DNA from: Prorocentrum cordatum
Taxonomy: Eukaryota
Assembly: GCA_963575745.1 (NCBI GenBank)
Contig: CAUYUJ010000329.1
Span: 62,001 to 115,293 of the forward strand
Direction of reading: 5' to 3'
Length of the DNA stretch: 53,293 nucleotides
Shown: positions 1-37,543 of the stretch, one piece after another
How the letters are laid out: each line of letters starts with the position of its first letter
How positions within the stretch are numbered: position 1 is the stretch's first letter
The notes under the pieces: generated by a model
What the model was told of the DNA's origin: nothing
What the model saw: the letters and a program-made list of their open reading frames with translations, nothing else
The model's database searches: none
Made by a program: the position numbers and the translations under genes

Positions 1-2
1 AA

Positions 3-1820
3 AAGTGGCGCGAGTTAAACGAGACTTTTTGGAGCTACTGGGCCAATGATTTTCCAGCATATGTGAAACAAAGACATTATTGCAGGGGCCTCAATGCCAT
101 GGTGGCATGGAGCGCGAATGACATCGCATGCGCCAACCACGGACAGAACACCGCGGACATGCGTCGACATCAGAATCGTGCACCTACTGACGTATATGAG
201 CTCCAGAAATGGAATGTGAGGGTGGCGTCCCGACGCTCATGCCAGTACACGTACACGTGGACGTATCACGTTTTGTCGATGTGCTGCAGTACTTCCGCTG
301 TCCCACAGTCGTGGGGCCTGGCAAAGCAGCACAATGGGGCGTACATCCGAACTTTGATCACCACACGAACGACCTGATCAATATTATGCAAAATCGTGGT
401 ATCACTGTTCTTCCATCAGATCACTGGGTGGAAGCGTACGATAGGATTACCCCGCAGGCTTGGCATGCAAAACAGAACAACCATAACATGGCGATGTTTA
501 CAACACAGTTCCGCGACGCAGTATGCTATCGTAACTTCTGCGCTTTGATTCAGTCACTGCCCTCTCAACCATATCCATTCAGGGCGCCATTATTGATTCC
601 TGTCACGGATGAGCAGGCCTACACACAGGCCAAAGAGATCATGGCTGCTCTCGACTTCAGAGAAAGGATGACAAACGAATGGAAAAGAGATCACGACGCG
701 ATGACACAGACGGCAAGCGAAATGGCTCATTGTGCGTGGATGGCATCATGTGCCGATGGTACGTTGCCGGCATCACTCCCTGCTGACGCAGGCGACACAA
801 CGGAACCTATTCCTGGAATGCCGAAACGGACACCAGCACCTGATCCTAGCGAGCCAGACAAAGCTATCCCTGAAAATGATCCATGGGGTGTAGCGTACGA
901 CGACTTATTCAACGACTATCAACGACTATCCTGGGGCTTGGGCATCCTGGCATTCAGTCGAGAAACAAGAGCTCCTCCACCCCAAGATCATTAAAACGGT
1001 TGAAGATGCACATGCAGTTACTTGGGTTGTGTTCGAGCAGTTTTTACAACAGATTACTGACTTGGATGGAGATGATAACGCGACCAAGTCACGACTCACT
1101 GCGGAAAACAACAGGTTGACTTCTCACTGTATCGGCCCTGCTGCCGAGAACGAGCGGACCATCATAGCATGCAAAACTTTCTTCAGGCAGAATGCACTAG
1201 ATCGCGTGGCATTGGGATATGATCCTGATGTTCCGACGTCCGTGTGGCGTGCGGCGGCTGATACAGAACAGCCAGCCCCACCAGGCCCATTGCCTGACCC
1301 ACTGCAACCTGGACCGCAATCGATAGACGTGCCACAGCCATCGACTCCTGGACCAACAGCAGACCAGCAGCCAGCAGATCAGCTCCCAAAAGCTGAGGCG
1401 GTACCGATCCCTGACAACGGCACTGACCTAGAGGCCATGGAGCTGGAGGCAACTCCTGCCGAAGAGGAATCTTCTCCACACGAGATGAATTTATTATCAT
1501 GGCAGGACAGCTGCGAGCGTTCCATGTATGAGGACATCAGCCAGGTCGGGATGTTCGATAACGCATGCACTATTCGAGAGTGGAAGCTGCAAGCAGGCAT
1601 CAAGGATGACCATCCGTACGTATGTCCAGTATTGCGGGGTACATCCGCGATCAATGGATTCGCCTGCCTGGACAACAAAGACTGGTACGAGCAACTGTTA
1701 CACGATGATTGTGTGATTGCTCACGCGCCTGATATCGCACAGTCTGGTTGCTTTCCAGAATGGAAGTGGATATCGCTACCAAAATTACGACGACGTACGT
1801 TATGGTCCCGAGTTAATTGA
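3..1820 (+). pseudogene. Frameshifted N-terminal part of the element's large ORF (unknown function)
   Basis: Overlapping + strand ORFs 3-377 (open from the window edge), 209-994, 883-1119 and 1029-1820 tile the region and overlap ORF 1717-5814. Frame switches near 210, 910-1030 and 1740 suggest one ancestral reading frame broken by indels or sequencing errors. Confidence 0.55.
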
Positions 1821-4800
1821 TGATGAATGGCTGGGAGCAAACAAATACATGAGCAAAGACATCGCGACCATGTTACGCCACGAGATTCACTACAAAAAGT
1901 TCTATATAAATCAATTTCACGATAGACGGGTCAACATTTGGACGAAAACAACAGATCGTGAATGGAAGATTCCAAGCAATTGGAAATCCTTTCAGGAAAT
2001 GGTTCAATGGAAATTCAAAGATCGCAATAACCACAACGGGCCGTCCATGAACGCGGTCGTGTCACACTTCAAGAAAGATGGTGGAAATGATGGATATGCC
2101 GATTGGAACGATTATTACCCGATCTTCATCATTCGTGCGTTCCAGAAACATATTGATCCGCAGAAAAATAGAATCGAGATATACGCCAAACCAATCCCCG
2201 AGGGAGGTGACCCCAGCTGTTTCGATTGGAACAGCGTCATTGCCATTCGATGTGTTGGAGGTCACAGTTGTGTTAACCCACTTACCAAACCATGGAATAT
2301 GGGCTGGGAGAGCCTACAATGGACAGACGTGAAATACCTCCACCACGGCACAGCAGCCCGTGCTTGGCGCAACATCTTGAAGACAGGAATCATTCCAGGC
2401 TACGTTGATCCATCTTCTCAGAGAGACAAGCATCATAAACCATCACAGCGCTCGGAGGCATGTTCCAGCACATATTTAGACAATGTCCAGAAGAATCCCC
2501 ACACCTCAGTAGAGTCATATAAGTTCTACAAGAACGAGGTCGAGCTAGTGATCAATATGGAGATCGCCACAAAAGCAGGTTGCAGATTTTGGCTGGGCGC
2601 TCAAGGCGCTATCATGACAGAGGACGTGGTTCCAGCTGCGGCAGTTATTGCAATCCGCCGCCTCAAACCACATCACATGCACGGCCAGCAGATATGGCCA
2701 GACGGCGCCACATGGGATTGCCCGCCATTGGCCGCGAGACCGCCATTGAGCAAGTACGAGATTTGCGCTTATCTTCCTGGAGAGTTCATCGAAGACCCTC
2801 CTGGGATTGCACCTGCTGGCACGGATCAGAACATGGAGCAGCCAAGGACAACGTCAGCATCAGCACCTTCGGCTCAGCTGGGGGCAACCCCTGCTAGCCG
2901 TATATCTGGAGCCGATGCCTTGGATGAGCAAATGGTCCGTGTTATGATTCAGGACACCAATCACAAAGCAGATGATAAAGAATGGTTAATTGCCCTGTCA
3001 TACTGCCGAGAGGCTCTTCGACCTATTACATCAAAGATTACACAAAAAGATTGGGATCGTCGCCCTGCATTTAATGATGTTCGCATGGGGGACTTCATTA
3101 TCATTAAGAATTGGGGATCTATCAAATGTTATCATTATGCCAATCACTACCCCAAGGGCAATCACAATACCAAGGTCCCCACGAATAAGGCCCACATATA
3201 TGGTCCAATCATTCATTTCGGAGTCTTTGACAAGTTCTTCGCAGTACAGATACCTATTTTCAACTACGGTTTACGATGGGTAAACATATGGTACAATGAC
3301 AAGAGCATGCCTCTGAAGGGCGTTGTCTTTGCATTACCAATTCGTATCGACGAACATGCCATTGACCCGACATATATGAATACTGTCTTGGAGGGACCAT
3401 CCTCATGCCGTGACCAAATACTCCAGCACAAAATTGATGGCAGTCTACCATATCTTGGTATGCCGAGCATTTATAGGCCACGCATTCCACGTACACTGAC
3501 CAGACAGCCCGCTCCTCGGACACCCGATCCCGAAGAGCTGGTGGCCACACCTGCCGGAGATACCGCTCCTACGGACGATGGGCCTCAACAAACTGCAGGC
3601 TCATCTGATGAACCTTTGGTTACCGTTATCGTGGATATATCAAACATATCACTCACCGCTGAGGAAAAAGCGGTAAATGACAATATGAGAGCAGATCTAC
3701 CAGCAGAGATCCGAGCAGACGAGCATGTTGATGCGAGCATACTCGACAACGTTATTGACCCGCCAGAGGACTTCCTCAACCACCCAGACTACGACCCAGA
3801 GGAGGATTCAAGGTGTATTAAACAGTCATACGACCGCCGCATATACCGCTGGACGTCGGAGTTGTTGGTGGAGTCACCTATGATAAAGATGAACCAAATC
3901 ATTGAGGTACACACTGGCGCGGACAGAATTGTGGTTGATAAAACACAATTGCACTTACGATTTGAGATTCAGTTCGGATCCAAAGCATGGAATGCAGAGA
4001 CATACTATCTGAATTATGATCATACCCACAAATGGGCACGTGACTTGCCAATTTGCAGTGCAGACCACTCTTTCAAAAAGTTGGTACACTACCTGGACCC
4101 AGAGACCATCGAGGAGTCGACTACAGGCGTCTTTCGATGGATCTCCAAAGTAGATCAAAACATATTGATGGACAGTATTGCGGAGCTCCGTGACTTCACA
4201 AAAGATGCCATCCATCAGAAACATCCTGCACTCCAAACGTTGCGTGATCTATTTAAACATTGCATCGACACATTCGGTAATCCAGACTTCCCCGTATGGA
4301 AGGAGCTGGTGGAAACACCTGCCGCGCCACGTGACCCAGGCGCGGAGCAGGATATTCCCCAGGACCCAGGCAGCGTTGCATCCGCAGCCCCTGATCAAGA
4401 AACCATGGTACGGATCATAGCCGAGCAGACGGGAGTCAACCGCGAAGAGGGCGACAACGAGTCTGCCTTGCAGGAGAAGGCTCGCCGTCTTCGTACTGAA
4501 AACGTATGCCATGGTGATACCGAGGATGCGGACAACGACGCAACAGAGCACATAGGACTGTCTGGGGAAAGATTGTCTAGGATCGAGATCGAGGGATTGA
4601 GTAGATCAATCGCTTCCCGACCGAACGCCGAGATCAACCGCGAAGCCATGGATCAGATCGGCCGCAGTCTTGCTCGTGGTCAGGATACTCGCTGGGGATC
4701 TCGTGAGCACCTCACGACGGAGGGAGCCCCAGAAACGATCCTGCATGATATCGCGCGATGTCGGAATTGTGGTCGAGACTTATCCCTTGGGATCGTCACA

Positions 4801-5814
4801 GGTGATGGTGCCCTTTGTGACATCTGTTGGCAGTGCACCGTGGCCGTAGGTGCGACGGGTAAAAGTACCGCCGTCCAGAGCGACCTAGCATACCTCCACA
4901 AGTTGACCAACTGGATCAAGATGACGCTCTCCCAGGATGGTATCACGAGGTACATGAGAGACGGAGCGCAAGTCATTATGACGGGCGCGCGCTCATTCCC
5001 AGGCAATGAGAAAGATTCGCTGAGGAGAATGGCTAATGTGTCTAGGAAGAGGTATCAGAAGTGGGTCGAATCTGGTCGCCCTCCTGCACACGAGTGCAGA
5101 CTGATGGGCGAGGCTGGTGACGACAGACCTCTGCACTACCCATATGCCAATCTCGTTCAGCGCTTTCTCAACGATTTGAAGTTCCACCACCAACTGACAG
5201 GCGCTCGCGTGAACGTGGGCAAGAAGGCCTGGAACGTGGACGACATGCGTGATGCATGCACGATCCTCGATGCCAGGATCAGGACTGGACAAGCTGGTCG
5301 GAAGAAATGGTGGCTGAACGAGGGCAGACTCGACAAGCAAATGCGGCAGGCTCGCGGACTTGTCACGATTGCCCTCCCTAGAAGGGATGGCACCCGTGAG
5401 AAAGTCACGCAGCGCAAGCTTGCTGCGATTGCTAACGAGTTGTTGGGCTCCCTCGATCCGTCACATACCGACCAGAGGGGGGGTGATTCAGGGATGAGAA
5501 CCGATCCGATCGAACCTGATACACACTCCCATCAGTCTGATGATGCCATGGAGCCGCGCCATCCACCGCCGCCGCCGCGCCCTGCCCCTGGCGATGCTGC
5601 ACAGTCCAGCGCCTCTGGCGCGGCGGACCACATGCCCGCGGGGCCGCGCGCCAAGAGAGCGCGTACCACAGATTACGCCGCCTACTGGCGCGACGACCTT
5701 GAGGACAGTCATTGGGGTCTCAGGTATTGGAGCTACTACATCAACTGTTGGATCTACATCGCGATGAACAACGACGAGTTCGTGTACATCCACGACATCC
5801 AGTACAACGATTAG
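1717..5814 (+). CDS. kptA: Large protein with an N-proximal Tpt1/KptA-like RNA 2'-phosphotransferase (ADP-ribosyltransferase fold) domain (about 1849-2660) and a CxxC..CxxC zinc finger (about 4759-4836)
   Basis: Tpt1 motifs in the correct order: SKDIATMLRH (SKxLSxxLRH), DGYADW (DGW), KNRIE (KxRF), IRCVGGHS (IRAxQGHS), LHHGTAARAWRNILKTGIIP (LYHGT..W..I...GL.P), ELVINMEIATKAGCRFWLGAQGAIMTEDVVP (IDx..A...G..F..S.NGV.LT..IP). Reading continues plausibly past TAG 5812-5814 to a stop at 5923-5925. Confidence 0.8.
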   Translation: MLTRLISHSLVAFQNGSGYRYQNYDDVRYGPELIDDEWLGANKYMSKDIATMLRHEIHYKKFYINQFHDRRVNIWTKTTDREWKIPSNWKSFQEMVQWKFKDRNNHNGPSMNAVVSHFKKDGGNDGYADWNDYYPIFIIRAFQKHIDPQKNRIEIYAKPIPEGGDPSCFDWNSVIAIRCVGGHSCVNPLTKPWNMGWESLQWTDVKYLHHGTAARAWRNILKTGIIPGYVDPSSQRDKHHKPSQRSEACSSTYLDNVQKNPHTSVESYKFYKNEVELVINMEIATKAGCRFWLGAQGAIMTEDVVPAAAVIAIRRLKPHHMHGQQIWPDGATWDCPPLAARPPLSKYEICAYLPGEFIEDPPGIAPAGTDQNMEQPRTTSASAPSAQLGATPASRISGADALDEQMVRVMIQDTNHKADDKEWLIALSYCREALRPITSKITQKDWDRRPAFNDVRMGDFIIIKNWGSIKCYHYANHYPKGNHNTKVPTNKAHIYGPIIHFGVFDKFFAVQIPIFNYGLRWVNIWYNDKSMPLKGVVFALPIRIDEHAIDPTYMNTVLEGPSSCRDQILQHKIDGSLPYLGMPSIYRPRIPRTLTRQPAPRTPDPEELVATPAGDTAPTDDGPQQTAGSSDEPLVTVIVDISNISLTAEEKAVNDNMRADLPAEIRADEHVDASILDNVIDPPEDFLNHPDYDPEEDSRCIKQSYDRRIYRWTSELLVESPMIKMNQIIEVHTGADRIVVDKTQLHLRFEIQFGSKAWNAETYYLNYDHTHKWARDLPICSADHSFKKLVHYLDPETIEESTTGVFRWISKVDQNILMDSIAELRDFTKDAIHQKHPALQTLRDLFKHCIDTFGNPDFPVWKELVETPAAPRDPGAEQDIPQDPGSVASAAPDQETMVRIIAEQTGVNREEGDNESALQEKARRLRTENVCHGDTEDADNDATEHIGLSGERLSRIEIEGLSRSIASRPNAEINREAMDQIGRSLARGQDTRWGSREHLTTEGAPETILHDIARCRNCGRDLSLGIVTGDGALCDICWQCTVAVGATGKSTAVQSDLAYLHKLTNWIKMTLSQDGITRYMRDGAQVIMTGARSFPGNEKDSLRRMANVSRKRYQKWVESGRPPAHECRLMGEAGDDRPLHYPYANLVQRFLNDLKFHHQLTGARVNVGKKAWNVDDMRDACTILDARIRTGQAGRKKWWLNEGRLDKQMRQARGLVTIALPRRDGTREKVTQRKLAAIANELLGSLDPSHTDQRGGDSGMRTDPIEPDTHSHQSDDAMEPRHPPPPPRPAPGDAAQSSASGAADHMPAGPRAKRARTTDYAAYWRDDLEDSHWGLRYWSYYINCWIYIAMNNDEFVYIHDIQYND

Positions 5815-6050
5815 TTTCGTCGCTGGACCCCGAGGACATATTGGGAGACGTTCACGACGAGCTACGCGACGTACAATGGTCAGAGGATGTGGGACCGCAG
5901 GTTCTACAAGAACGGCAACACGTAGGGGGTCGGCTGCAAGGCCCACCGCTCAAAGGCTTGAACTTCATTATACTTCAAGTTCGCCTTGAGCGGTGGCTAT
6001 TATATACTTTTAGGCCACTTCACTATACAACACAAGTGGCCACACATACA

Positions 6051-6134
6051 AACATCTTTTGCGATAACCAAGGCAGCGTCCTAAGGAGCAAGGCCAACGG
6101 GAGTCGCCATATAGAATTCACATACATGCAACTT
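6051..6134 (+). pseudogene. Possible relic of a Ty1/copia RNase H C-terminal segment
   Basis: NIFCDNQGSVLRSKANGSRHIEFTY resembles copia IxCDNQSAI...RTKHIDIRY with a shorter spacer; short and isolated. Confidence 0.4.
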
Positions 6135-6597
6135 TCGTGTTTGTCAACACGACCTTTCGTCTGGCCAGACATTTGTTTTTACACATAATTGCGTTCCATA
6201 GCACGATCGTGTTCATCAACACGATCTCAGCGTGCATATTCGTTATAATATATCTACATTGCGTTGAGAATACTCTGACAGCTGGTGGCAACACCTGCCT
6301 CGCAAAGGCGAGGCAGATTACAAGTTGCTCTATTGCTCAGATCTTCTTTCTCCGCCCACCCTTGTCCCATTCTTCTCCGCCCTCGAGTGCCGAAGCGTTT
6401 TGGGGGGCGCGCCGAGGGGGCACCAAAGTGTGCTTGGCGAAGAAATGGGGACCCAGGGTGTTCCTTCTCACTTTACTTTGCAGCTGTGGCTATACTGACT
6501 TTAAGCTCAGCTGCCTGCAGACCTAAGGATTAAAGGAGTAAAAGGGTGACGGATTCTTTTCCTCTGTTCCCGAGTCCTACCCTCACGGGCGGGATTC

Positions 6598-6610
6598 AGG
6601 ACGGGGGGTG
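6598..6610 (+). other. Polypurine tract (plus-strand primer) candidate
   Basis: AGGACGGGGGGTG directly abuts the TG start of the putative 3' LTR. Confidence 0.55.
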
Positions 6611-6793
6611 TGAATAGAACCCGTGTAATACCCTCATATATACTCCTTATCCTTACCTCTCCTGCGCCTGGCCGTTTTGGCTCAGGTATTGGGACATATC
6701 GATCAGACCTTTGATCGTGCAGGAGGGAAAGACATCCATCTATCCCTCCTTCCCTCTACCAACGGATCAGGGGTTCTGTATCCTTGTACTTCA
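6611..6793 (+). repeat. Putative 3' LTR (183 bp)
   Basis: Begins TGAATAGAACCC and ends GGGTTCTGTATCCTTGTACTTCA (TGAA/TTCA termini plus an AGAACCC/GGGTTCT inverted match). Contains TATATA at 6637-6642 and an SL-like motif at 6671-6686. Composition changes right after 6793. Confidence 0.6.
6671..6686 (+). promoter_or_regulatory. Dinoflagellate spliced-leader (DinoSL)-like sequence inside the LTR
   Basis: GCCGTTTTGGCTCAGG vs the 3' part of DinoSL GCCATTTTGGCTCAAG: 14/16 identical. Confidence 0.7.
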
Positions 6794-7994
6794 ACCCCAT
6801 GCACAGCTGCTACGCACTGCTTGGCTCGCAGTCGTTCGGCTTCCCCCCTGCGCTGTTGGGTGGACTGGCGGGCGTTGAAATCGCCGCGGAGTGGTTCAGC
6901 CCTTCGCAGCAGCTGCAGCACCCCAGGCTCACCTACCAGCTATCGGCAGGTTGCGTTGCACCACGTTCCGCGACAGCTCAGCCCCCCTGGCTAGCACACG
7001 TCGTCTAGGGCGTTTGGGGCCTGGCGCTCCGCCAGCGACTCGCTCCTCGGGCCTCGCGCCTGCCCCCACTCAGTACGACGGACTCGGTTGCTCAGGTACA
7101 CGTCTTGTCACTGTGTGGGCCGTGCCTCATGGCAGGCATCGAATTCCCCGACATTTTGTCCTGTGCATGTGCTCGAGCTTCCCAGGATGCCCCCCGCCGT
7201 CAGTCCCCCCACGCCTCGCGGCTGCTTTGTGAGTGGGCCGGCCGGCAAGTGCGCCTCTTGTAGCTAATTAGGCTTGCCCGTTGGCCCAGACGCCCTGCCC
7301 GCCGCCTGCCTCTTCGCTCGTGGCCGCGACCGAAAAAGTATCCCCGCGGTGTCCGTGTACTGGAGTTCTCCCCGCGGTGTCCGTGTACGTCTGTCGCCAC
7401 TGCCGGTGTGCTGACTGCGGGCACGCGCTCCCTATTCAGGGCTTCTGGTGCGCGACTTCGCTGGCGCCACCTGTTGCACCCGTCTGGCCCTGGGTCACGG
7501 CTTGGTTCCCCGAGCTTCCAACGGTCGCTTTCGTGGTGCCCCCGCGCCATTTTGGCCGCGCTGCAGCTTGACTGCTCTTCGCACTTGCGCGTGCTGCTGC
7601 TGTTGGACCCTTTGAGTTGCGGCCACCCTGGTACCTCGCAGCTTGCCGATGCTCATGCCCACCCTGGGCACCCAATTCGACCTCCGAAAGTCGGTTCACT
7701 TGGCTGCGGCCACCCTGGTACCAGTAGTCCGGGTGCTTGCGCCCTTGCAACTAATTCCCGTTCGCAGCTTTCCCCGGTCGCCAGTTACCCTGGCCGCCTG
7801 CTGCCACCGACGTTTTGAATGCAACCCGCCAGCACTGGTATCCAGCCTACCGCCAGCCTTTTCCATTCGCCGGCCCGCCGCCGAGGTGCTGCATGAGGCC
7901 CCGGCCCACCGGTTTAGTTTAATTCGTCTTTGCGCGCCCCGCTCTGACTGGACTCGCCGCTGGCGCGCTCGCCTGCGGTCGCTGACAAACTGCG

Positions 7995-9115
7995 TCCCCG
8001 CCAGTGCCGGCGCGGCCCGCCGTAGCACGCTCGGCGTTCGATTTGTTTCGCGCGTGAGCATGGTCGAGTCGGGCAGCGCAACGTCGAGCAGTACGATCTC
8101 GAGTGCGACATAGGCGAGCAGCGCCGTCCGGCCAGCGCCACGGTGAACAGTGTCACGACGCTGACGGAGACGACCAGGTCTTACCATACCACGTTGGCCT
8201 CGAGCACCACGGTCACGGCCAGTGCAGCCCCGAGCAGTGCGACGTCCAGAGCCACTTGCACGGTGAGCTCCACGACGGCAATGAGCAGCAGCGTGAGTGG
8301 TTGAAACGAGAAGCCCAATGTCGGACAGTACGTCTCGTGGGCGACACTATCGGGCAGCAACACGCCGGCCAGCATTACGACGAGCAACGGCGCGACATCG
8401 ACGGATACGACAAGATCCTACAATACCACGTTGACCGAGACGAGACCAGGACGATACCTTAGACGGCTTGCACGAACGGCACCAGCAGCACGATGGCCAA
8501 CTCGAAGGTGGCCAGCAGCACCAATGCATCCTTCACCAACTTGACTTCCAGTGCTACGTTGTCCAGCAGTACGTTTCAGACGACCTGCAGGGCGACCTCC
8601 GGCCGCACGGTCACGACCAGGGCGGTCTCGAGCAGCGCGACGTCCACGGCCACTTTCACGGTGGGCTCCACGACGACATCGAGCATAGTACGAGCGGCAC
8701 CAGCAGCACGGCGGCCTGCTCGAGCGTGACCAACAGCACGACTGCACCGTCCACCCCTTCAGTGAATAGGTGTCTAGCAGTACGCTTCAGACGACCAGCA
8801 GCACGACCTCGAGCAGCAGGGCCCCCACCAGACTGCCCCGAGGAGCGCCACCGCCACGGCCACCTCCACGGTGAACTCCACGACGGTACTGAGCAGCAGC
8901 TCGAGCGCGGTCGTGGCGAGCAGCGCAACGTCGAGCAATACGACTCGAGTGCGACACAGTCGAGCAGCACCACGCCGTCCAGCACTACGGTGAGCAGCGG
9001 CACGACGCTGACGGATGCGGCAGGGTCATACAATACCACGCTGCCCTGGACGAGGTCTTCGGCGGCTAGTGCCAGCGGCTCCAACAGCACGACGGCCAAC
9101 TCGAGGGTGACCTGC
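7995..9115. repeat. Degenerate internally repeated block (Ser/Thr-rich in + frames); its left 58 bp recur at about 10649-10706
   Basis: Recurring TCGAGCAGC/CACGACG/GCCACTT..ACGGTG units near 8060-8290, 8600-8730 and 8850-9110. CCCCGCCAGTG..GGCGCGGCCCGCC.TAGCACGCTCGGC.TTCGA occurs at both 7995 and 10649. Stops interrupt all frames. Confidence 0.55.
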
Positions 9116-18250: not shown

Positions 18251-19978
18251 CTAAGTGTCGAAGATGTCGGCGTTGAAGTCCTGCGGGGCGGGCGAAGCAG
18301 GGTGCCGCATGTGAGAGAGGGAAATGCCCGTGAGCGGGACGGGTCGTGCCGCTTGCCGGGAACGCTCGGCCCTGATTTGTCTGGCCCGTCCCCTATTGCA
18401 CTGGATGCGCCTTTTCTGATCCAGAGTTAGGGAGGGCGGGGGTGGCGGCGGAGGGGGGGTGGAGGGAAAAATGGGGGCTGCGCCCAAAAAGTGCATGGCC
18501 TCTTGTTCCGCTTCCGAGTCCTGATCGGCGGGATCAGGCTGCTCGTGAGCGTCTAAGGGGAGGTCGCTATGGCGCCGCGGCTCGCGGGGCCTGGAGAGAG
18601 CCAAAAGCCTGCGGAAGCGGTCCAGCTCCCCATCTACTTTGGCACGGGTGCGAGGGGCGGAGGGATCAACAAAGTCGGGGCCTAGCCAAAAGTCGCTGGT
18701 CATGGAAGCGGAGAAGCGGATGAGGGGAGCCAGAACCGAGGGGTCCGACTGGGGAAGAGGATCCTGTGGGTCGTCAACAAATGGTAAAATGACGTCCTGG
18801 TATATAGCCTGGGCGAGACATTCGTAAAGGGCAGAAGGATAGGTCTTTTTGTCAGCAGTGAAAAAGCGGTCATTCTCGTCCTTACCTAGAAGTGTGCGAT
18901 GTGACCCCCGTGGGTGCGTGCACTTGGTCCCTTGGGGACGGTTAGTAAGGAGCTCTGGGAGCGAGGGAAGGCGGAGCGATAGCAAGCGCGTGGGGGCTTT
19001 GCCGAATTCGTTAGGAGGGCGGCAAGACGGCTGGAACATGCACTGGTCGATGTCCGTGGTGCGGACCGCCGGTGCAGCAGCCAGGGCCATTAAAGGCCTC
19101 CATATCCAGCTAGGCTGCGCCCTGGGTTCCCAGTGGGCAGGGCATGGATGTTCCATCCATGCCGAGGTACCCATTTCCAAATGAGCGGCAAAGAGGAGAA
19201 TCAATGAAGCGAGTAGCAAGTTGGCTATCTGCAATTGGCGGGATTGCTTGGGCGTTGCGTTGGGGATGCCCCAGTAGTGCTCGGTAGTGCGTAGCGGCGG
19301 TGGTCCGTTGGGCTTCCAGCGGGCCGCGCAAAAGGTTTCGCACGGCGGGCCCCCACCTGAAACAACCACTCTGCCGGCATAAATATGTTGTTGCCAGAGC
19401 TTAATGGTCTCCGACTTGGTGAGATCGCCTGAGTCGGGGTCGATAGCAATATCGACCGACAGTATATGTACCTCTATCGAGGGGTCAGGCGTGAATGATT
19501 CCAGGTGATGCTGGATATCCCCTTCGCGCCTGCGGCCAGAGAAAAGATTGAGGATGAAAATTTCCTTGCGCCTTATACGGGCTGGAATTTCTCTGGTCGC
19601 TAGACCAGAATAATCCTTCGGTTGAAATGGCCATTCAGGCAGCGCAGGAAGAGGAGGAGGTAGTGGCGGAGGAACATCGGCGGGAAAAAGTAAAGAGACG
19701 GCATCAGAGTCCAGCGCGTAATCTGTAACCGCCATTATGGCGCGAGCGTCCGCTTGCGACAAGTGTTTGGCAAAGTCACGAAAGTGCTGTGTGGTAGCAC
19801 GCTTGGCACGATGTGCCGGTAATGCCACACGCCAGCGACCTACGCCTGACTTAACTTGTAGCTTGGCATTTTCGCAGCGTTGCATAGCAAGCGCTGCGAT
19901 TTGCTCTTGGGGAAGGCGTTGGGAATGGCACAGGAGGTAGAGAGCACATATGAAGGAGTCGAAACAGAGGTGCTGCAA
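18251..19978 (-). CDS. C5 cytosine DNA methyltransferase-like domain; C-terminus of LINE ORF2 (separated by a frameshift near 19980)
   Basis: Ordered DNMT motifs: ILNLFSGRRREGD (I), LSVDI (II), GDLT (III), GGGPPCETF (IV, catalytic PC, about 19340), WMEHP (VI), DQCMF..KAPTRLL (VIII), KTYPSAL (X). Confidence 0.85.
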   Translation of the reverse strand: MQHLCFDSFICALYLLCHSQRLPQEQIAALAMQRCENAKLQVKSGVGRWRVALPAHRAKRATTQHFRDFAKHLSQADARAIMAVTDYALDSDAVSLLFPADVPPPLPPPLPALPEWPFQPKDYSGLATREIPARIRRKEIFILNLFSGRRREGDIQHHLESFTPDPSIEVHILSVDIAIDPDSGDLTKSETIKLWQQHIYAGRVVVSGGGPPCETFCAARWKPNGPPPLRTTEHYWGIPNATPKQSRQLQIANLLLASLILLFAAHLEMGTSAWMEHPCPAHWEPRAQPSWIWRPLMALAAAPAVRTTDIDQCMFQPSCRPPNEFGKAPTRLLSLRLPSLPELLTNRPQGTKCTHPRGSHRTLLGKDENDRFFTADKKTYPSALYECLAQAIYQDVILPFVDDPQDPLPQSDPSVLAPLIRFSASMTSDFWLGPDFVDPSAPRTRAKVDGELDRFRRLLALSRPREPRRHSDLPLDAHEQPDPADQDSEAEQEAMHFLGAAPIFPSTPPPPPPPPSLTLDQKRRIQCNRGRARQIRAERSRQAARPVPLTGISLSHMRHPASPAPQDFNADIFDT

Positions 19979-22787
19979 GAGACTGGCGCGTGAGCCAAAG
20001 GGGAGACTGGCAGGCCGGGCGCACCTGGGTGTCCGGTACTAGGCCTTTGACCCTGTGGGACAAGGTCCAGTGCACCTGGGCAACGTGTTGTTTTAGCCCC
20101 CGAAATTTTAGAAATGTGCGCGAGCACCATGGGCAAGTGAGCACCGCTGGGTAGTGCGCTGCCAGGCGTTGCTGCTCGATCGGGTGCTGTACATGGTCCG
20201 TCGGCAGGGGGATCCCACATGGGACAGTAATGGCAAAAAAGTGCTTGGCAGCTGCCTCGGCGAGTGCTGCGCGAGCGAAATGCTGTGCTCCCGCTGTAAG
20301 GGCATTGCGAATTCGACGCTTCCATCCTGTGTGGGATTGGAGAGCGAGGGCCTCCCACTGGTCCAGGTGCGACATTGGCGGGGGCATTTGTGCTAGATTG
20401 GCAGAAAATTCGCCCAGCCACTGTAGGTCCTTCTGCACCAGGGCAAGCCATGAGTCTGGGACGTCTGCGGCTAATTTGGCCAGCAGGGAGGTGAGGTGCG
20501 GAGGTCCCGTGCGGAGGAGCCTGCCAAAGAGGCGCAGACGCATTGCACTAAAGATATGCGGCAGAGGGGGTCTGCAGACCTTGGCCAGGACGAATGAGTC
20601 CCGCTCTGCCGTGCTGTCGCACCTTGGGAGGTGGAGCAAGCGCCTGTGCATTCTCATGAACTCTCCTTGTAAGGAGACTATTTGCGGTCCAGTGAGCAAT
20701 GGCCAAACCGCGGCATTAAAAAGGCGGGAGGAGAGGATGAGGGAGTCCAGTAAATGCAGGTGCTCATGAAGCCAGGTACTAGAAGAGTGGCGCAAGAATT
20801 GACGGGCAAGATTGCGCCAGCTGGGGGCCGCCTCCGATCGCCTGTGGGCGAGTTCGGGGCCTATGCTGCCCTTTTCGTCCAGGTGCGTACCTAGATATGT
20901 GTATATTCTGGCGAAGTGGAGGGAAAAAGGCGAATGCCCGAGAGTAGGTGAGACTAGCATTTGCCCATTGAGCCCTTGGGGGTCCCAGAGCTTGCGACGA
21001 AGTGATATGGAAGCTTCCCCTCTAAACTGAAAAAGGCACATGGTTTTGTTGACTTGAAAATTTAGCTTGATGCCTGAGAGCGCGTAGGCTTCGACTACGA
21101 TGGCCATTAGCACGGGCATGGCGTCAAATAGCTCCTTAGTGGGACCAAGGAAGGCATAGGCACCATCATCGAAAAAGCATGAGTCCAGATATTGGTGCAC
21201 TTCTGTCTCTGCGGAGGCTATATTGTCCTTGTTATGAGCGAAAAAAGAGCGCGGGGCATCCTTGTCCACCTGGACATTGAGAATAAGGTGTGCAAGCGGT
21301 GATTCGGTGAGCTGCTTGACAGCTTCGTTATTGGCTCGGGCCATGAGGAAGTTGAAAAGAACGTCTCCGAGCTGCTGTCCTGGGATGGTGCCACGTAATG
21401 TGAGTGCTACCCCTGAGGCTCCTGGGTAGAAGGCCCAGGTATGCTCGCATGCAGCCGAGATTTGTGCGTGGAGATGCGGGGGGAGACCAGCCTCCTGCAG
21501 TATAGGAGGGGCAGAGAGCAAATGTCTTATTAGTTCTTCACCTGTCTCCTGGGGGAGATCAAGGGAAGCAACTAAGTAGTAAAGGTCAGCTTGTTGCGAG
21601 TCGCAGTAAAATATGAGCTGTCGGAGGGCCCTGTAAAAGGCTGAGACAGCATCTATAAATATGTATGCTGAGGAAATGCGCTGGCTATTTGCGTAGGCTT
21701 GGTGCGCTAAGACCGCGAGCGTGGCGAAATCTGTGCCCCGTCCAGCGATGCCGCCAGACTGTGAGGCGCCTGCCATGGGAGGAAGATATTCCACCAGTTC
21801 TTTGCGCAATAGGGCACGATGCCGCTTGGAGAAGTGGGGGGAGGCCATTACCGAGCGGGAGTTGGCCATTATGGCCGGATTGCCTTTACCTTTAAAAATG
21901 TCGAAGTTGTACCCTCCCCGCCAAGCCAGCGGTTCCTCAAGGCGCACCTGCGCCTTGAGGTGGACCGGGTAGTACTGCTTCGCAAGTAGACGGTGAAACG
22001 ACTTGACAAAGGCTCCTTTGAAGCCATCCACGCTGGCTGCCGAGTCTGGGGTCCTGGCATAGGCGCGCTCGATTTGCGCTAGGGAGAAGAGGGAGTATGG
22101 AGGGGGAACATCCACAGTAAGGTCAGCGGGCAAATACGATGCACTAGCGTCGTAGGCCTTGGCATGTTTGAGCGGGATAACTGCACCATGCTCCTGTCGA
22201 GCAAAATGGGATAGCCACGTGTCGGCCGCTTGGGTGGCGTCTACCACGAAGGTGCCCGCTGCCGTGGAGAGGATAGGTAGGGGAGAGGGGCGTAGCTTCT
22301 TTTTGGAACCCACGCCCAACGTGCGTAAGCGCGCAAAGGCAGTGCATTGTTGTGAGGTCTGCCATGCCTCGTGAACTTCGGCGGCAATGCCTTGTAGGTG
22401 AAAAGCGGCATCCAAGTCGACGGAGCAACGTACTGCCTGTGTGAATTGAGCTAGGACGATGGCCCTGATGGCGCTTGCGCGCGCGCGTAATTGAATGGCA
22501 GCCGCGTGTGCGGTACCTATGGTAGGCGCAGAGCAAGCATGCGGGAAGCGTGTTTTAGCAACGCGTGTAGGCGAGGATGCTAAAAACTGATGCAAGCAGG
22601 CCATGCGAATTCTGGGCTTCCATTTAATGGAGGCATTAGGGTCAGCCATGCTGGCACGCATGCTGCGGAGAGCAGCGCCGAGCTCCGCTAGTTTGGCAAA
22701 AGTATTATTAATTGCGGGCATCAGCGAGAGCTCTTCGTGATGTCGGAAGGCCGCTTTGGGACGTGTAAATGCTTGCCTGGATCGCAC
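19851..22787 (-). CDS. LINE reverse transcriptase plus C2H2 zinc finger (ORF2 middle)
   Basis: AASVDG, W.GG..FDIFKGKG...NSRSV, SQSGG, FIDAVSAFY, GTIPGQQLGDVLF, FFDD (about 21165-21176), GIKLN...KT, YTYLG; CPWC..F....GLKQHVAQVH. In frame with the upstream ORF across a single TAG at 22839-22841. Confidence 0.92.
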   Translation of the reverse strand: MRSRQAFTRPKAAFRHHEELSLMPAINNTFAKLAELGAALRSMRASMADPNASIKWKPRIRMACLHQFLASSPTRVAKTRFPHACSAPTIGTAHAAAIQLRARASAIRAIVLAQFTQAVRCSVDLDAAFHLQGIAAEVHEAWQTSQQCTAFARLRTLGVGSKKKLRPSPLPILSTAAGTFVVDATQAADTWLSHFARQEHGAVIPLKHAKAYDASASYLPADLTVDVPPPYSLFSLAQIERAYARTPDSAASVDGFKGAFVKSFHRLLAKQYYPVHLKAQVRLEEPLAWRGGYNFDIFKGKGNPAIMANSRSVMASPHFSKRHRALLRKELVEYLPPMAGASQSGGIAGRGTDFATLAVLAHQAYANSQRISSAYIFIDAVSAFYRALRQLIFYCDSQQADLYYLVASLDLPQETGEELIRHLLSAPPILQEAGLPPHLHAQISAACEHTWAFYPGASGVALTLRGTIPGQQLGDVLFNFLMARANNEAVKQLTESPLAHLILNVQVDKDAPRSFFAHNKDNIASAETEVHQYLDSCFFDDGAYAFLGPTKELFDAMPVLMAIVVEAYALSGIKLNFQVNKTMCLFQFRGEASISLRRKLWDPQGLNGQMLVSPTLGHSPFSLHFARIYTYLGTHLDEKGSIGPELAHRRSEAAPSWRNLARQFLRHSSSTWLHEHLHLLDSLILSSRLFNAAVWPLLTGPQIVSLQGEFMRMHRRLLHLPRCDSTAERDSFVLAKVCRPPLPHIFSAMRLRLFGRLLRTGPPHLTSLLAKLAADVPDSWLALVQKDLQWLGEFSANLAQMPPPMSHLDQWEALALQSHTGWKRRIRNALTAGAQHFARAALAEAAAKHFFAITVPCGIPLPTDHVQHPIEQQRLAAHYPAVLTCPWCSRTFLKFRGLKQHVAQVHWTLSHRVKGLVPDTQVRPACQSPLWLTRQSLAAPLFRLLHMCSLPPVPFPTPSPRANRSACYATLRKCQATS

Positions 22788-22838
22788 ATATCGCTTCCAA
22801 GCCGCGATAGCTGCCAGCAGGAAAAGGTTGCTTGCTTC

Positions 22839-24669
22839 CTATTGAAGCGTGTTGGCTTGGCTTATAATTAAAGCTCTGGCATCCATGAGCCTCAGGGTGG
22901 CCATGGAGACGCGGGAATTCGAAGGTGCGCGACCTGTAGACGTGCGGGGTTGGGGAAATGCCTGTAGCATGGCATTGCGCGCTTCCCTGTCCAGGATGAG
23001 CGCGTGGTCGGAGGCGTGCAGGTCGAAAGTTAAAGCTTCAGGGGGAGGCGAGAAAGCGTCTTCAAAAAGCTGTCTGGCCGACGGGTCGAGGTATGCAGTA
23101 GGATCGTGCGGAATACGCATGACCTGGCGTCCCTGGTCTTCATTAGGTCGGAGCTGTAACTTGAAACGGCATACTAAGCACGTGGCAGCGTGGTCTAGCA
23201 CTGCGAGTGCTAAAGTAAGAGAATACTTGACTTCGCATTCATTGGCAGAGGCGCCTATGGGTATAGCTATGTAGTCCCTGCGCTTCCAGTGCTGTTTGAA
23301 GGCGGGATCACGTGCTGGCGCGATCCATGTGCCCGCCCCCATAGGGTGTGGCACAAAGGTGGCCGGCAGCCAAAGTTTAGATGCAAATAGGAATCGATGG
23401 CAAAAGAAGCCAGCCGTGTTAACTTGCTCCGCGTGTTGTGGGCCAATGGCCGCTGATGTTTGCGTGCCCACTGCAGCATTGGAGTCCATAAGGACAAGAG
23501 TAGGAGTGGGCTGCGGTAAAATATGGTCGTGCACGTGTCTAAGGTGCTGCCACCATGCGGCCTGCTCGTGGAGAGGACGCCCGGAATGATGAGCACGTGC
23601 CACGAGGATGCTGAAACGTAGGCCGTTCTGACTGATGACGGCCGCGATAATGCGCGGGTCTTGGTGTACAATACGCACGCTGTGAGACTTAATAGGGAAA
23701 GTGGGAATGCCTTTGGCATTGGGAAAAACGGGCGTGGTAAGGTTGACCCATAGCGCGCAGCCGCAAGCATGAGTTCCAGCTTGAGACTTTGACAAAAAGA
23801 CAACGTACGGGGGAACCTGGCGTTTGCCAGAGCCCGCGGCTGTGACTCGCGTCTCTTGCATACCGATAACGTCGAGCCCATTGCGTTGAAAAGCGGCGGC
23901 CAGTTGGTGGAGGCGCCCTTTGACGGCCACGCCTGTAAGCCTGGCTCTTTGGGAGATGCGCGAAGCAGGCGTGAGAGAGAGAATGTTGGCTGAGGCTAGC
24001 CTGAGACAGCATGATGCCGTGGCGTCTGCGATCGGGGCTGCCTCTTTGGAGAGACCTGGAAAAACATCAGCAAGCGAGGTGCACGGGGGGAGAGGAGGAT
24101 TGAGACTAACTTGATGGTTCGGCGGGTAAAGCGCACGCTGTTGCTGAGGAAGGCACTCAAGCCAGAGCCATTCCAAAATGTGCGCATTGTCTTGGAGAAA
24201 GCTCATGAGGGGCGGAAGCACTGGAGGAGGTAGCAGTGCGAGGGAGTATAGTCTGGCGACCGTGTCAACCATTTCGTTGAGCGGGTCAGCTTGGTGACCG
24301 TGCACGTGCTGCCATGTAAAGCGACGCTTCAGGCCAAGAACCTTGCACAGACTGTCGAGGCGGCTTCTATGTTCCATTAGTGGCTCGGCCACGGTACCGC
24401 CTTGGGCGGTGGCGACAACGTCCATGTTGTCTGAGTGAAAGGTGAGAGGAACGGCGGGAGGGAAGGGGGACTGTAAAGCCCATAACGCCGCCCAGGTGGC
24501 GGCATCGAATTCCGCTTTAGCGGAGACTCTAGTTGCTCCCATTGTCTGCGCGGTGGGACACCCTAGGAAGCCTAGAAAGTGTCGAGTGCCGTTAAGCCAT
24601 GCAAAGACCAGAAAAGCCCACGCTGGCGGGCCAGCGAGATCTCCTTTGGAGGCCCCTCCGCTGGCGTCA

Positions 24670-24708
<39 letters not shown>

Positions 24709-24901
24709 CGGAATCAAAAGCCGCGTAGGGAGTATCGAAGACAAAGCTGTGCCAGGTGGGGATGGAGGAGGAGTGGAGGGCTGGAAAAATGACATCGAAG
24801 TCCCTGACCAACTGTATGGAGGTAGCCGTAAGCACCGGTAGCATCCACCCCATGGGCGGAAGCGGGCTGCGGCGTATACCTTGCCGCCCCCCCAGGTTCA
24901 C
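22839..24901 (-). CDS. LINE ORF2 N-terminus: RNase H followed by AP endonuclease; frameshifted by a (TA)n expansion at 24671-24705
   Basis: RNase H: IYTDAS, AKAEFDA, FHSDN, WQHVHGH..DPLNEMVD. APE: ASANILSL, IGMQETR, LMDSNA, TW, RRDYIAI, LDH. Confidence 0.85.
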
Positions 24902-33848: not shown

Positions 33849-36985
<3,137 letters not shown>

Positions 36986-37543
36986 CGCCGAGTGGCCGTC
37001 GGCCCATCCCGCCAACGAGCCTGTGTTGTGGGTCATAGGCTTCATGGATGCTCGTTGGGATGTCGTGTGAGGCCCATCGAGGGCCTCGTGAAGGCAGTTT
37101 TGCAACCTCTTGGGGGGGGGGGCGTCATTGGGCCTGTTGGGGCGTCTTCGGGCCCTTCGGGGGCCTTGAGGGAACCTCTTGGGGCTTCCTGGGGGTTCAC
37201 TGGGACGGAAAGCTCGAATTGTTTGTTCGGACTCGGCGTTGTTGGCCCCATTTGGGGTCATCATGAGACGCCTCTTGGGCCGTTGTGGGGCCTCTTGGGC
37301 CCTCTTGGGGCCTGGTGGGCCGTCTTGAGGCGGTAGTGGGGGCCTCCTGGGTCGTCTTGATTGTCGTGGGACCGAGGAGTCGTTCGTATACGTAGTCACA
37401 GTCGTAGCTGTCGTGGCACAAGCAGTGAACAGCAGCAGGAGGAGGGAAATACGGGGAGGATCAGCAGGAGGAGGGAAGGGATTGTGAGCAGGTTGGCAGG
37501 GCGGGTGAGGAGATGGAGGCAGGAGAAAGAGGAGGAACAGCAG

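Follow-up and report, generated by a model that had tools for sequence, protein, structure and literature searches.

Introduction

Dispersed packaging signals are known in phage MS2, satellite tobacco necrosis virus, and parechovirus, and the ASH1 mRNA of budding yeast carries repeated localization elements, three within its open reading frame (ORF) and one at the stop/3' untranslated region (3'UTR). Palindromic repeats residing in frame within genes are represented by the Rickettsia palindromic elements, and the group II intron domain V and the U6 internal stem-loop are characterized by a 5' AGC, an interrupted two-part helix, and a GNRA-type loop. The 3'UTR stem-loops of stringent-type long interspersed nuclear elements (LINEs) are recognized by the element's own reverse transcriptase (RT) (PMC5135761), selfish palindromic repeats reside in Volvox organelle DNA (PMC2670323), and packaging signals have also been studied in coronaviruses (bioRxiv 10.64898/2026.06.18.733228). 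Here we report a short hairpin motif that recurs five times along the plus strand of an unclassified, very high-copy repeat element in the genome of the marine eukaryote Prorocentrum cordatum. The DNA analyzed, hereafter the window, is the stretch of 53,293 bases at positions 62,001 to 115,293 of contig CAUYUJ010000329.1 (assembly GCA_963575745.1), in which the element occupies the left end with a long ORF, including a marginally Tpt1/KptA-like domain, and a structured 3' region. Four hairpin copies lie within the ORF and the fifth lies downstream of it.

Occurrence and confinement of the hairpin motif

The motif AGCTGGNGGNNACNCCTGC was found exactly five times in the window, at 1441, 2876, 3536, 4304, and 6280, always on the plus strand and inside the element, and exact matches to the 19-base pattern AGCTGGNGNNNNCNCCTGC were limited to the same five plus-strand positions. 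When up to one mismatch was allowed, the 19-base pattern gave six matches, the sixth being at 7958 in GC-rich DNA, against an expectation of 0.21, and six was reached in none of 100 shuffles. Likewise, the 20-base form with up to three mismatches recovered only the same five sites (expected, 1.21), a number reached in none of 100 shuffles. A covariance model was then built from the five copies and scanned over all 53,293 bases on both strands. The five copies scored 33.0–35.2 bits, and the next best hit in the window on either strand scored 14.4 bits. By pattern and covariance-model scans alike, the remaining 47 kb contained no copy on either strand. The confinement to the element and to one strand, which had been raised in a preliminary description made from the sequence alone, thus holds within the window.

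With its five copies spread across 4.9 kb of the plus strand, the motif constitutes the largest repeat family in bases 1–8000. The flanks of the copies are unrelated to each other and no larger duplication carrying the copies was detected, and internal module duplication was therefore rejected as their origin. No second copy of the element was found elsewhere in the window.

In hairpin form, each copy (Table 1) has a lower stem of 3 bp separated by a U·U (T·T) mismatch from an upper stem of 4 bp, which is capped by a tetraloop, in most copies of the GNRA type. The mismatch, T4/T17, is constant in all five copies. The loops are GCAA in three copies, GAAA in one, and GCCA in one; since the loop-closing pair G8:C13 is Watson–Crick in every copy, four of the five are GNRA-tetraloop hairpins. 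These results bear out the preliminary description with respect to the five positions, now recovered by exact pattern matching, the four GNRA loops, and the constant mismatch. A search against Rfam 15 gave no match in the whole window at gathering thresholds, and relaxation to E ≤5 over bases 1–8000 gave four weak hairpin-shaped matches far below threshold, none of them on the five motifs.

Constraint at silent sites and paired change

All four copies in the ORF are read in the same codon phase, as peptides of the form x-L-(E/G/V)-(A/E)-T-P-A. In this phase, the stem is formed by the first and third codon bases, and the bases left free of the stem are second codon positions. Given the four peptides and the codon usage of the ORF, the fit of the silent sites to the hairpin has P = 8.5e-10: in every one of the four copies Leu is CTG, codon 3 ends in G, the Thr codon ends in the complement of N7, and Pro is CCT.

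The variable stem pair 7:14 reads A:T, G:C, T:A, T:A, and T:A from copy 1 to copy 5. Here N7 is the second base of the codon that specifies E, G, or V, and it pairs with N14, at the silent third position of the Thr codon. Standard pairs occupy 30 of 30 stem pair cells, and one of the six pairs covaries (UA in three copies, AU in one, GC in one), so that the earlier observation of a stem position that always changes together with its partner stands, on two double changes only.

The null for this covariation consisted of 35 distinct sequences from viral contigs that fit the same pattern by chance, drawn from 61 single matches of a generic 19-base pattern, none of which was element-related by tblastn. 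The variable pair was Watson–Crick in 12 of the 35 (34%) and G·T in four. Compared with this set, the probability of Watson–Crick pairing at the variable position was 0.005 for five of five copies and 0.04 for three independent types.

Retention of the motif in diverged relatives

An exhaustive protein search yielded 108 matches to the ORF product, nearly all of them fragments of at most 150 amino acids (aa), and a search for shorter proteins yielded 38; a search for homologues of near-complete length yielded none. Among ten fragments for which source labels were given, seven were assigned to EukProt Pyramimonas sp. CCMP1952, a marine green alga, one to NCBI, and two to ENA. In 21 of 25 fragment rows aligned over motifs 2–4, the motif was recognizable down to approximately 40–48% identity, while the linkers flanking it in the same rows diverge and gain insertions and deletions. 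By these alignments, the motif is kept at the same linker positions in diverged subfamilies. The variants were QLGETPA, SLGATPA, and TPGATPA at motif 2; ELVTTPA, ELVATPG, ELVATSA, and QPAVTPA at motif 3; and EPVETPA, EPVGTPA, EPVATPA, EPAATPA, and EPAAAPA at motif 4. T-P-A was seen in relatives down to approximately 30% identity (P0071, QPAVTPA; P0098, APVATPA; P0060, RLVATPT at another position).

Of the six distinct amino acid variants in codons 2–4 of the three motifs, five result from a change at the second codon position, a class that accounts for 392 of 1432 (27%) elsewhere in the ORF (P = 0.007 for the excess). One of the five, L>P, affects the invariant mismatch; V>A affects the base that covaries; and the remaining three, A>E, E>G, and E>A, fall in the loop. 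The stem-forming bases, at the first and third codon positions, are unchanged in these variants. Such a pattern is the reverse of ordinary coding constraint and is the one predicted by a stem made up of those two positions.

The silent-site fit, the covarying Thr base, the pattern of amino acid variants, and the presence of a non-coding fifth copy together make it probable that selection acts on the hairpin-capable motif as a nucleic acid, besides any action on the peptide. The preliminary proposal that selection acts on nucleic-acid structure is supported by the same four observations.

The spread of the copies could also be ascribed to a selfish mini-palindrome, short and mobile or self-copying, that landed repeatedly in tolerant linkers and has no function for the element; the in-frame palindromic repeats of some bacteria and the organelle palindromes of green algae would be its parallels. 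It would explain why the flanks are unrelated, the copies not having been spread by larger duplications, and why they reside only where seven extra linker residues are harmless. Nevertheless, the 47 kb of adjoining repeat-rich DNA holds no copy, all copies have the same orientation and phase, and the same sites are kept in subfamilies only 40–60% identical in protein as the linkers diverge, which argues for purifying selection; this explanation is thus very unlikely.

DNA relatives were also sought. A protein-guided scan of viral contigs for other copies of the element found none, and that of JGI metagenome contigs gave 47 pattern matches, of which zero were confirmed. Scanning of the metagenome contigs with a 24-base pattern returned three loci (L001 2520–2543, L002 1472–1495, and L003 7001–7024) that share a single sequence, in which the variable pair is C:G and the loop is GAAA. 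The contigs show no similarity to the element, and the match is probably a chance hairpin-capable one in a bacterial gene.

Placement of the copies and predicted folding

The coding copies are placed in linkers between folded modules. The surrounding sequence is of the disorder type, at the 80th–99th percentile for three of the four copies, and the linker with copy 3 has a predicted local distance difference test (pLDDT) value below 50 in the structural model. Copy 2, the sole copy with A1:T20, lies shortly past the Tpt1-like module on its 3' side. Copy 5 is preceded immediately by a TGA in the motif's own phase and lies approximately 355 nt past the stop of the family, with several ORF-frame stops between 5812 and 6280; though non-coding, it is identical to the exact consensus. 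The earlier statements that the encoded peptide varies (E/G/V) and that one copy lies downstream of the ORF were accordingly borne out.

The isolated hairpin was calculated to have a folding energy of −8.5 to −10.8 kcal/mol on the plus strand versus −6.5 to −8.8 kcal/mol on the minus strand, the former being more stable by about 2 kcal/mol, and GNRA loops are present on the plus strand only. In contexts of 40–56 nt, the upper stem appeared in the minimum-energy fold of four of the five copies, and in a context of ±100 nt the canonical pairs had probabilities of 0.96–1.00 for copy 2 only. Next to copy 5, the perfect 9-bp hairpin CTGCCTCGC-AAAG-GCGAGGCAG overlaps the copy by five bases and excludes its lower stem. 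It is the dominant local fold, and the alternative structure suggested in the preliminary description is confirmed. In copy 3, bases 3541–3548 (GTGGCCAC) constitute an eight-base self-complementary run over the upper stem and loop, which could pair between two molecules rather than fold back.

Since the copies are situated just after folded modules on the sense strand, they might be regarded as translational pause sites that slow ribosomes at domain boundaries and thereby aid co-translational folding of the modules. The calculated stability is, however, weak for ribosome stalling, pausing would not need a fixed sequence, and the non-coding copy 5 would be left unexplained. We consider this role very unlikely.

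Properties of the host element

The ORF is degraded in this copy of the element: its frame changes near 200–245 and within 1717–1820, and a stop interrupts it at 994. The TAG at 5812–5814 is private to this copy, G being present at 5813 in all covering contigs of four sequencing runs, and the stop of the family was hence placed at 5923–5925. A related protein fragment extends the ORF by 91 aa past the left end of the window, and the extension contains no domain.

The single Pfam domain of the 5.9-kb ORF scored 27.1 bits against the cutoff of 26, marginally within Pfam gathering, and homologues scored 27.0 (P0077), 25.8 (P0102), and 21.7 (P0018) for the same family. In a PDB search with the family profile, the best five of eight matches were Tpt1 chains, at weak E values of 0.013–0.23. 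On these matches the domain may be described as Tpt1/KptA-like, the assignment being marginal. Pfam detected no other domain in the ORF, including HUH, tyrosine-recombinase, endonuclease, and ligase domains, and no reverse transcriptase, transposase, or protease was recognized in it. ESM Atlas gave no usable match, and a PDB sequence search gave nothing. AlphaFold models of parts of the ORF had mean pLDDT values of 59.8 and 62.6; Foldseek returned no match at E ≤ 0.001 for the modelled parts, and the top-ranked one (E 0.09, probability 0.97) concerned a small barrel of SH3b-like type in the module that follows motif 2.

This module (2896–3450, ORF residues ~394–580) was modelled with pLDDT values of 80–93 as helices and a small beta barrel, and the barrel weakly resembles bacterial SH3b cell-wall-binding domains (template modeling score of 0.50–0.57 on the target). 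Its signature YGP...FAVQ...WVNIWYN is also found N-terminally in the distant homologue P0077, before the Tpt1-like part, and the module order of P0077 therefore differs from that of the ORF. In addition, the C-terminal module has a CxxC...CxxC pair, and a three-copy direct repeat (419–441, 878–900, and 1822–1844; 70–78% alike) encodes D-x-W-x-x-A-Y-D-like peptides near the starts of three ORF segments, which may be a recurring peptide at module starts.

The fold of the 3' region, computed on 501 nt (about 5920–6420), includes a long hairpin at ~5943–5996 and another at 6013–6041. A two-copy hairpin family, TCGTGTT-NNNN-AACACGA, lies at 6135–6152 and 6207–6224 with the loops TGTC and CATC, the copies being 72 nt apart; none was found elsewhere in the window (expected, 0.11). 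Some contigs of two runs (X3 and X4) have 6110–6206 swapped for approximately 21 other letters.

Table 1. Coordinates and properties of the hairpin copies and of other features of the element
Feature	Coordinates	Strand	Sequence	Remarks
Hairpin copy 1	1441..1460	+	AGCTGGAGGCAACTCCTGCC	Pair 7:14 A:T; loop GCAA; encodes ELEATPA in the frame-3 ORF piece 1029–1820
Hairpin copy 2	2876..2895	+	AGCTGGGGGCAACCCCTGCT	Pair 7:14 G:C; loop GCAA; encodes QLGATPA
Hairpin copy 3	3536..3555	+	AGCTGGTGGCCACACCTGCC	Pair 7:14 T:A; loop GCCA (non-GNRA); encodes ELVATPA
Hairpin copy 4	4304..4323	+	AGCTGGTGGAAACACCTGCC	Pair 7:14 T:A; loop GAAA; encodes ELVETPA before the C-terminal module
Hairpin copy 5	6280..6299	+	AGCTGGTGGCAACACCTGCC	Pair 7:14 T:A; loop GCAA; non-coding, in the structured 3' region
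Perfect 9-bp hairpin	6295..6316	+	CTGCCTCGC-AAAG-GCGAGGCAG	Present in local folds and in the 501-nt fold
Long element ORF	1..5925	+		Open at the left window end; degraded in this copy
Tpt1/KptA-like domain (RNA 2'-phosphotransferase/ADP-ribosyltransferase fold)	1849..2622	+		PF01885, E 5.2e-6; marginal match
Structured non-coding 3' region	5926..6420	+		Folding z −4.83; 0/100 shuffles fold as well

Parts of the stretch were present in ten of the 16 listed sequencing runs, each with at most 0.29 of its words. In four runs, short contigs (2610, 1859, 717, and 500) were 80–99% like the stretch and covered all of its 30 bins. Because thousands of contigs of such similarity cover the whole stretch, the element represents a very abundant repeat family; it is a very high-copy repeat and is unclassified. 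Contigs of the element family still cover the sequence to at least ~6383. Among the 40 differences listed of the 1456 between the run contigs and the stretch, none falls in the motif, which says little.

The module-boundary positions of the copies and their single codon phase would also suit junctions for RNA processing or recombination, where whole modules would be lost or shuffled in frame by cutting and rejoining at two hairpins or by a template switch from one to the other. The Tpt1-like domain of the same ORF would then clean the 2'-phosphate from a joint of the tRNA-ligase type; a 2'-phosphate at a ligated RNA junction is indeed given as the known substrate of the Tpt1/KptA family (PMC6097658, PMC6333775), and the altered module order of P0077 is likewise in keeping with shuffling. 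On the other hand, none of the 12 best-supported joints listed in the four runs is hairpin-to-hairpin; each of the 138 protein fragments examined aligns to the ORF in one segment at most, so that no module-skipping join was seen; no endonuclease or ligase was found; and the frame that stays open after copy 5 does not look coding. Junctions of this general kind are very unlikely. In the likewise very unlikely specific form of a cut-and-rejoin pathway on the element RNA, an endonuclease would open two of the five hairpins, an enzyme of the tRNA-ligase type would join the ends, and the 2'-phosphate left at the joint would be taken off by the Tpt1-like domain of the element itself; the products would be in-frame module-skipping or circular RNAs with one hairpin regenerated. 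If true, the mobile element would have a splicing system of its own, unconventional and HAC1-like.

Proposed role of the hairpins

The findings are best accommodated by a dual-coded cis element, namely, a short hairpin that would be selected as nucleic acid while embedded in the sense strand of the element. Four copies are placed in disordered inter-module linkers, which would tolerate the seven imposed codons, and one in the 3' non-coding region. We infer that the active form may be RNA, in which case five identical hairpins on the sense transcript could serve as repeated binding sites for one protein, made either by the element or by the host, and the bound protein could mark or coat the full-length transcript for ribonucleoprotein assembly, packaging, export, or stabilization. 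Multiple protein-binding sites on the sense RNA are thus our tentative proposal, to which we attach somewhat less than an even chance. The preliminary description had suggested that the hairpins may be packaging, dimerization, or protein-binding signals on the element RNA.

Several observations weigh against this proposal or against the underlying selection on nucleic acid. When G·U pairs are allowed, the covariation test gives P ~0.1 for three independent types; one of six pairs varies, with two compensatory events, in five copies of one element; and column shuffles attained the covariation score in 29 of 500 trials. The window also has no G·U pair that would fix the strand. In the ±100 nt context, the pair probability was near 0 for copies 1, 4, and 5 and approximately 0.25 for copy 3, the local z-scores of copy 1 (−0.64) and copy 4 (−1.06) were weak, and copy 5 was unformed in the 501-nt fold of the 3' region, where its neighbor at 6295–6316 wins. 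No RNA-binding, Gag-like, or capsid domain was found in the 5.9-kb ORF by Pfam, ESM Atlas, PDB, and Foldseek; no RNA run was among those listed as containing part of the stretch, and no sign of transcription of the element was found. Furthermore, the distant relative P0077 has ELAATKA, whose Lys codon is incompatible with the stem. The common codon phase of the four copies has P = 0.037 if phase were free; this phase, together with the T-P-A retained by distant relatives, neither feature being noted in the preliminary description, makes it possible that the peptide has a role as well.

Taken further, the last two points lead to an explanation in which x-L-x-x-T-P-A is a linker motif of a polyprotein, where it would, for example, be cleaved by a protease or undergo proline-directed phosphorylation, and nucleotide identity is secondary. 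The position between folded modules in disorder-type sequence, including the segment with pLDDT below 50, is what such a motif would be expected to show, as is T-P-A kept to approximately 30% identity even where, as in P0077, the stem is impossible. A peptide signal fails to account for the silent-site fit, for the Thr third base that tracks codon 3, and for the non-coding fifth copy; residues 2–4 vary radically (L/P, E/G/V/A, A/E/G/T/V) rather than conservatively, and no protease domain was found in the ORF. We therefore regard it as unlikely.

Our occurrence, silent-site, and covariation measures apply to RNA and DNA alike, there is no G·U pair by which an RNA strand could be recognized, and the hairpin folds on the minus strand too. 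An imperfect 8-4-8 palindrome acting in double-stranded, extruded, or single-stranded DNA, where it would be bound or cut by a recombinase, nuclease, or replication protein of the element itself, would fit these measures equally, and an unclassified element might be a DNA transposon or of the rolling-circle type. Nevertheless, GNRA loops occur, and the extra 2 kcal/mol is gained, on the plus strand only, and as to the choice between the RNA and DNA forms, only these two features would favor plus-strand RNA. Transposase binding sites normally lie in non-coding subterminal regions and are not scattered through an ORF. Moreover, the half-site preferences of a dimeric protein would not be expected to make the arms co-vary within single copies, and no transposase, HUH, or tyrosine-recombinase domain was found in the 5.9 kb. 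A DNA-level signal accordingly appears rather unlikely.

Known short signals were considered in addition and rejected. In the case of paired E-boxes (CAGCTG/CACCTG), the first box is present in only two of the five copies; the Escherichia coli Chi octamer occurs within copies 3–5 and not in copies 1 and 2, and the host is a eukaryote; the splice donor CTG|GTG is missing from copies 1 and 2; and small-RNA target sites would not account for the paired change.

If the proposal of binding sites on sense RNA is true, the element would provide a compact case of a structured RNA signal written into a protein-coding frame, and the motif would be a sequence handle for a protein that recognizes one of the most abundant repeats of the organism. 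The Tpt1/KptA-like domain in the same ORF raises the possibility that the element uses unusual RNA-end or RNA-junction chemistry. Within the portions of the literature accessible to us, we found no description of the Tpt1/KptA family in a mobile element, nor of such a motif or of a Tpt1-bearing element. If the motif is only a tolerated palindrome or a peptide site, it would be a useful family marker and little more.

Other features of the window

Just downstream of the element, the GC-rich DNA contains exact direct repeats, a 20-mer occurring twice at a spacing of 28 nt and an 18-mer occurring twice at a spacing of 87 nt (7341–7388 and 7618–7722). On the minus strand, another element, unrelated to the first, is represented by a series of long ORFs across 18251–27468. 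One of these ORFs (22839–24539) matched the apurinic-type endonuclease domain PF03372 (E 1.3e-6) and, weakly, RNase H. On account of these two matches the second element looks LINE-like; it contains no copy of the hairpin motif. The region 34001–37000 has a very high GC skew of 0.49–0.82 and a lower GC content of 0.36–0.44, which suggests G/T-rich simple or satellite repeats.

Comparison with known systems

Among the in-frame palindromes, the Rickettsia and Volvox repeats resemble the present motif in that a palindromic repeat is translated and tolerated in surface or linker regions. They differ in being 50–150 bp long, in being found in many unrelated genes, and in being regarded as selfish, whereas the present motif spans 20 bases, is restricted to one element in the window, and is kept across subfamilies. 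The similarity to the group II intron domain V and the U6 internal stem-loop, consisting of AGC at the base of a two-part helix, an internal irregularity, and a GNRA-type loop, is superficial. Assignment to domain V was rejected, as the hairpin has 20 nt instead of ~34, a symmetric U·U instead of a 2-nt bulge, and no accompanying intron domains; the Rfam family Intron_gpII gave no match in bases 1–8000 even at E ≤5.

Like the stringent-type LINEs, the element is present in many copies and has a conserved hairpin in its 3' non-coding region, here copy 5 together with its neighbor. It departs from them in having no RT domain in the 5.9-kb ORF, no poly(A) or simple-repeat tail after 6316, and four more copies in the ORF, and, for the part of the element inside the window, interpretation of copy 5 as a LINE-type 3' stem-loop was rejected on the first two grounds.

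Closer likenesses are offered by the systems in which one signal recurs along an RNA. Like the ASH1 mRNA, whose elements are read by one protein complex, the present element has repeated cis stem-loops in its ORF and one in its 3' region; the ASH1 elements, however, differ from each other in sequence and belong to a cellular mRNA, not to a multi-copy element. The packaging signals of single-stranded RNA viruses are short, individually weak stem-loops with a common recognition feature, distributed over coding and non-coding sense RNA, and the element corresponds to them in having multiple stem-loops of a common motif along its sense RNA, at the level of sequence. In contrast to those signals, the stems described here are nearly identical in sequence, keep one codon phase, and belong to a eukaryotic genomic repeat in which no coat or Gag gene was found. 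By analogy, therefore, the hairpins would functionally be most like the dispersed packaging signals of RNA viruses or the repeated in-ORF localization elements, and they are set apart from both by the near identity of the copies, their single phase, their positions at module boundaries, and their residence in a Tpt1-bearing, unclassified eukaryotic repeat.

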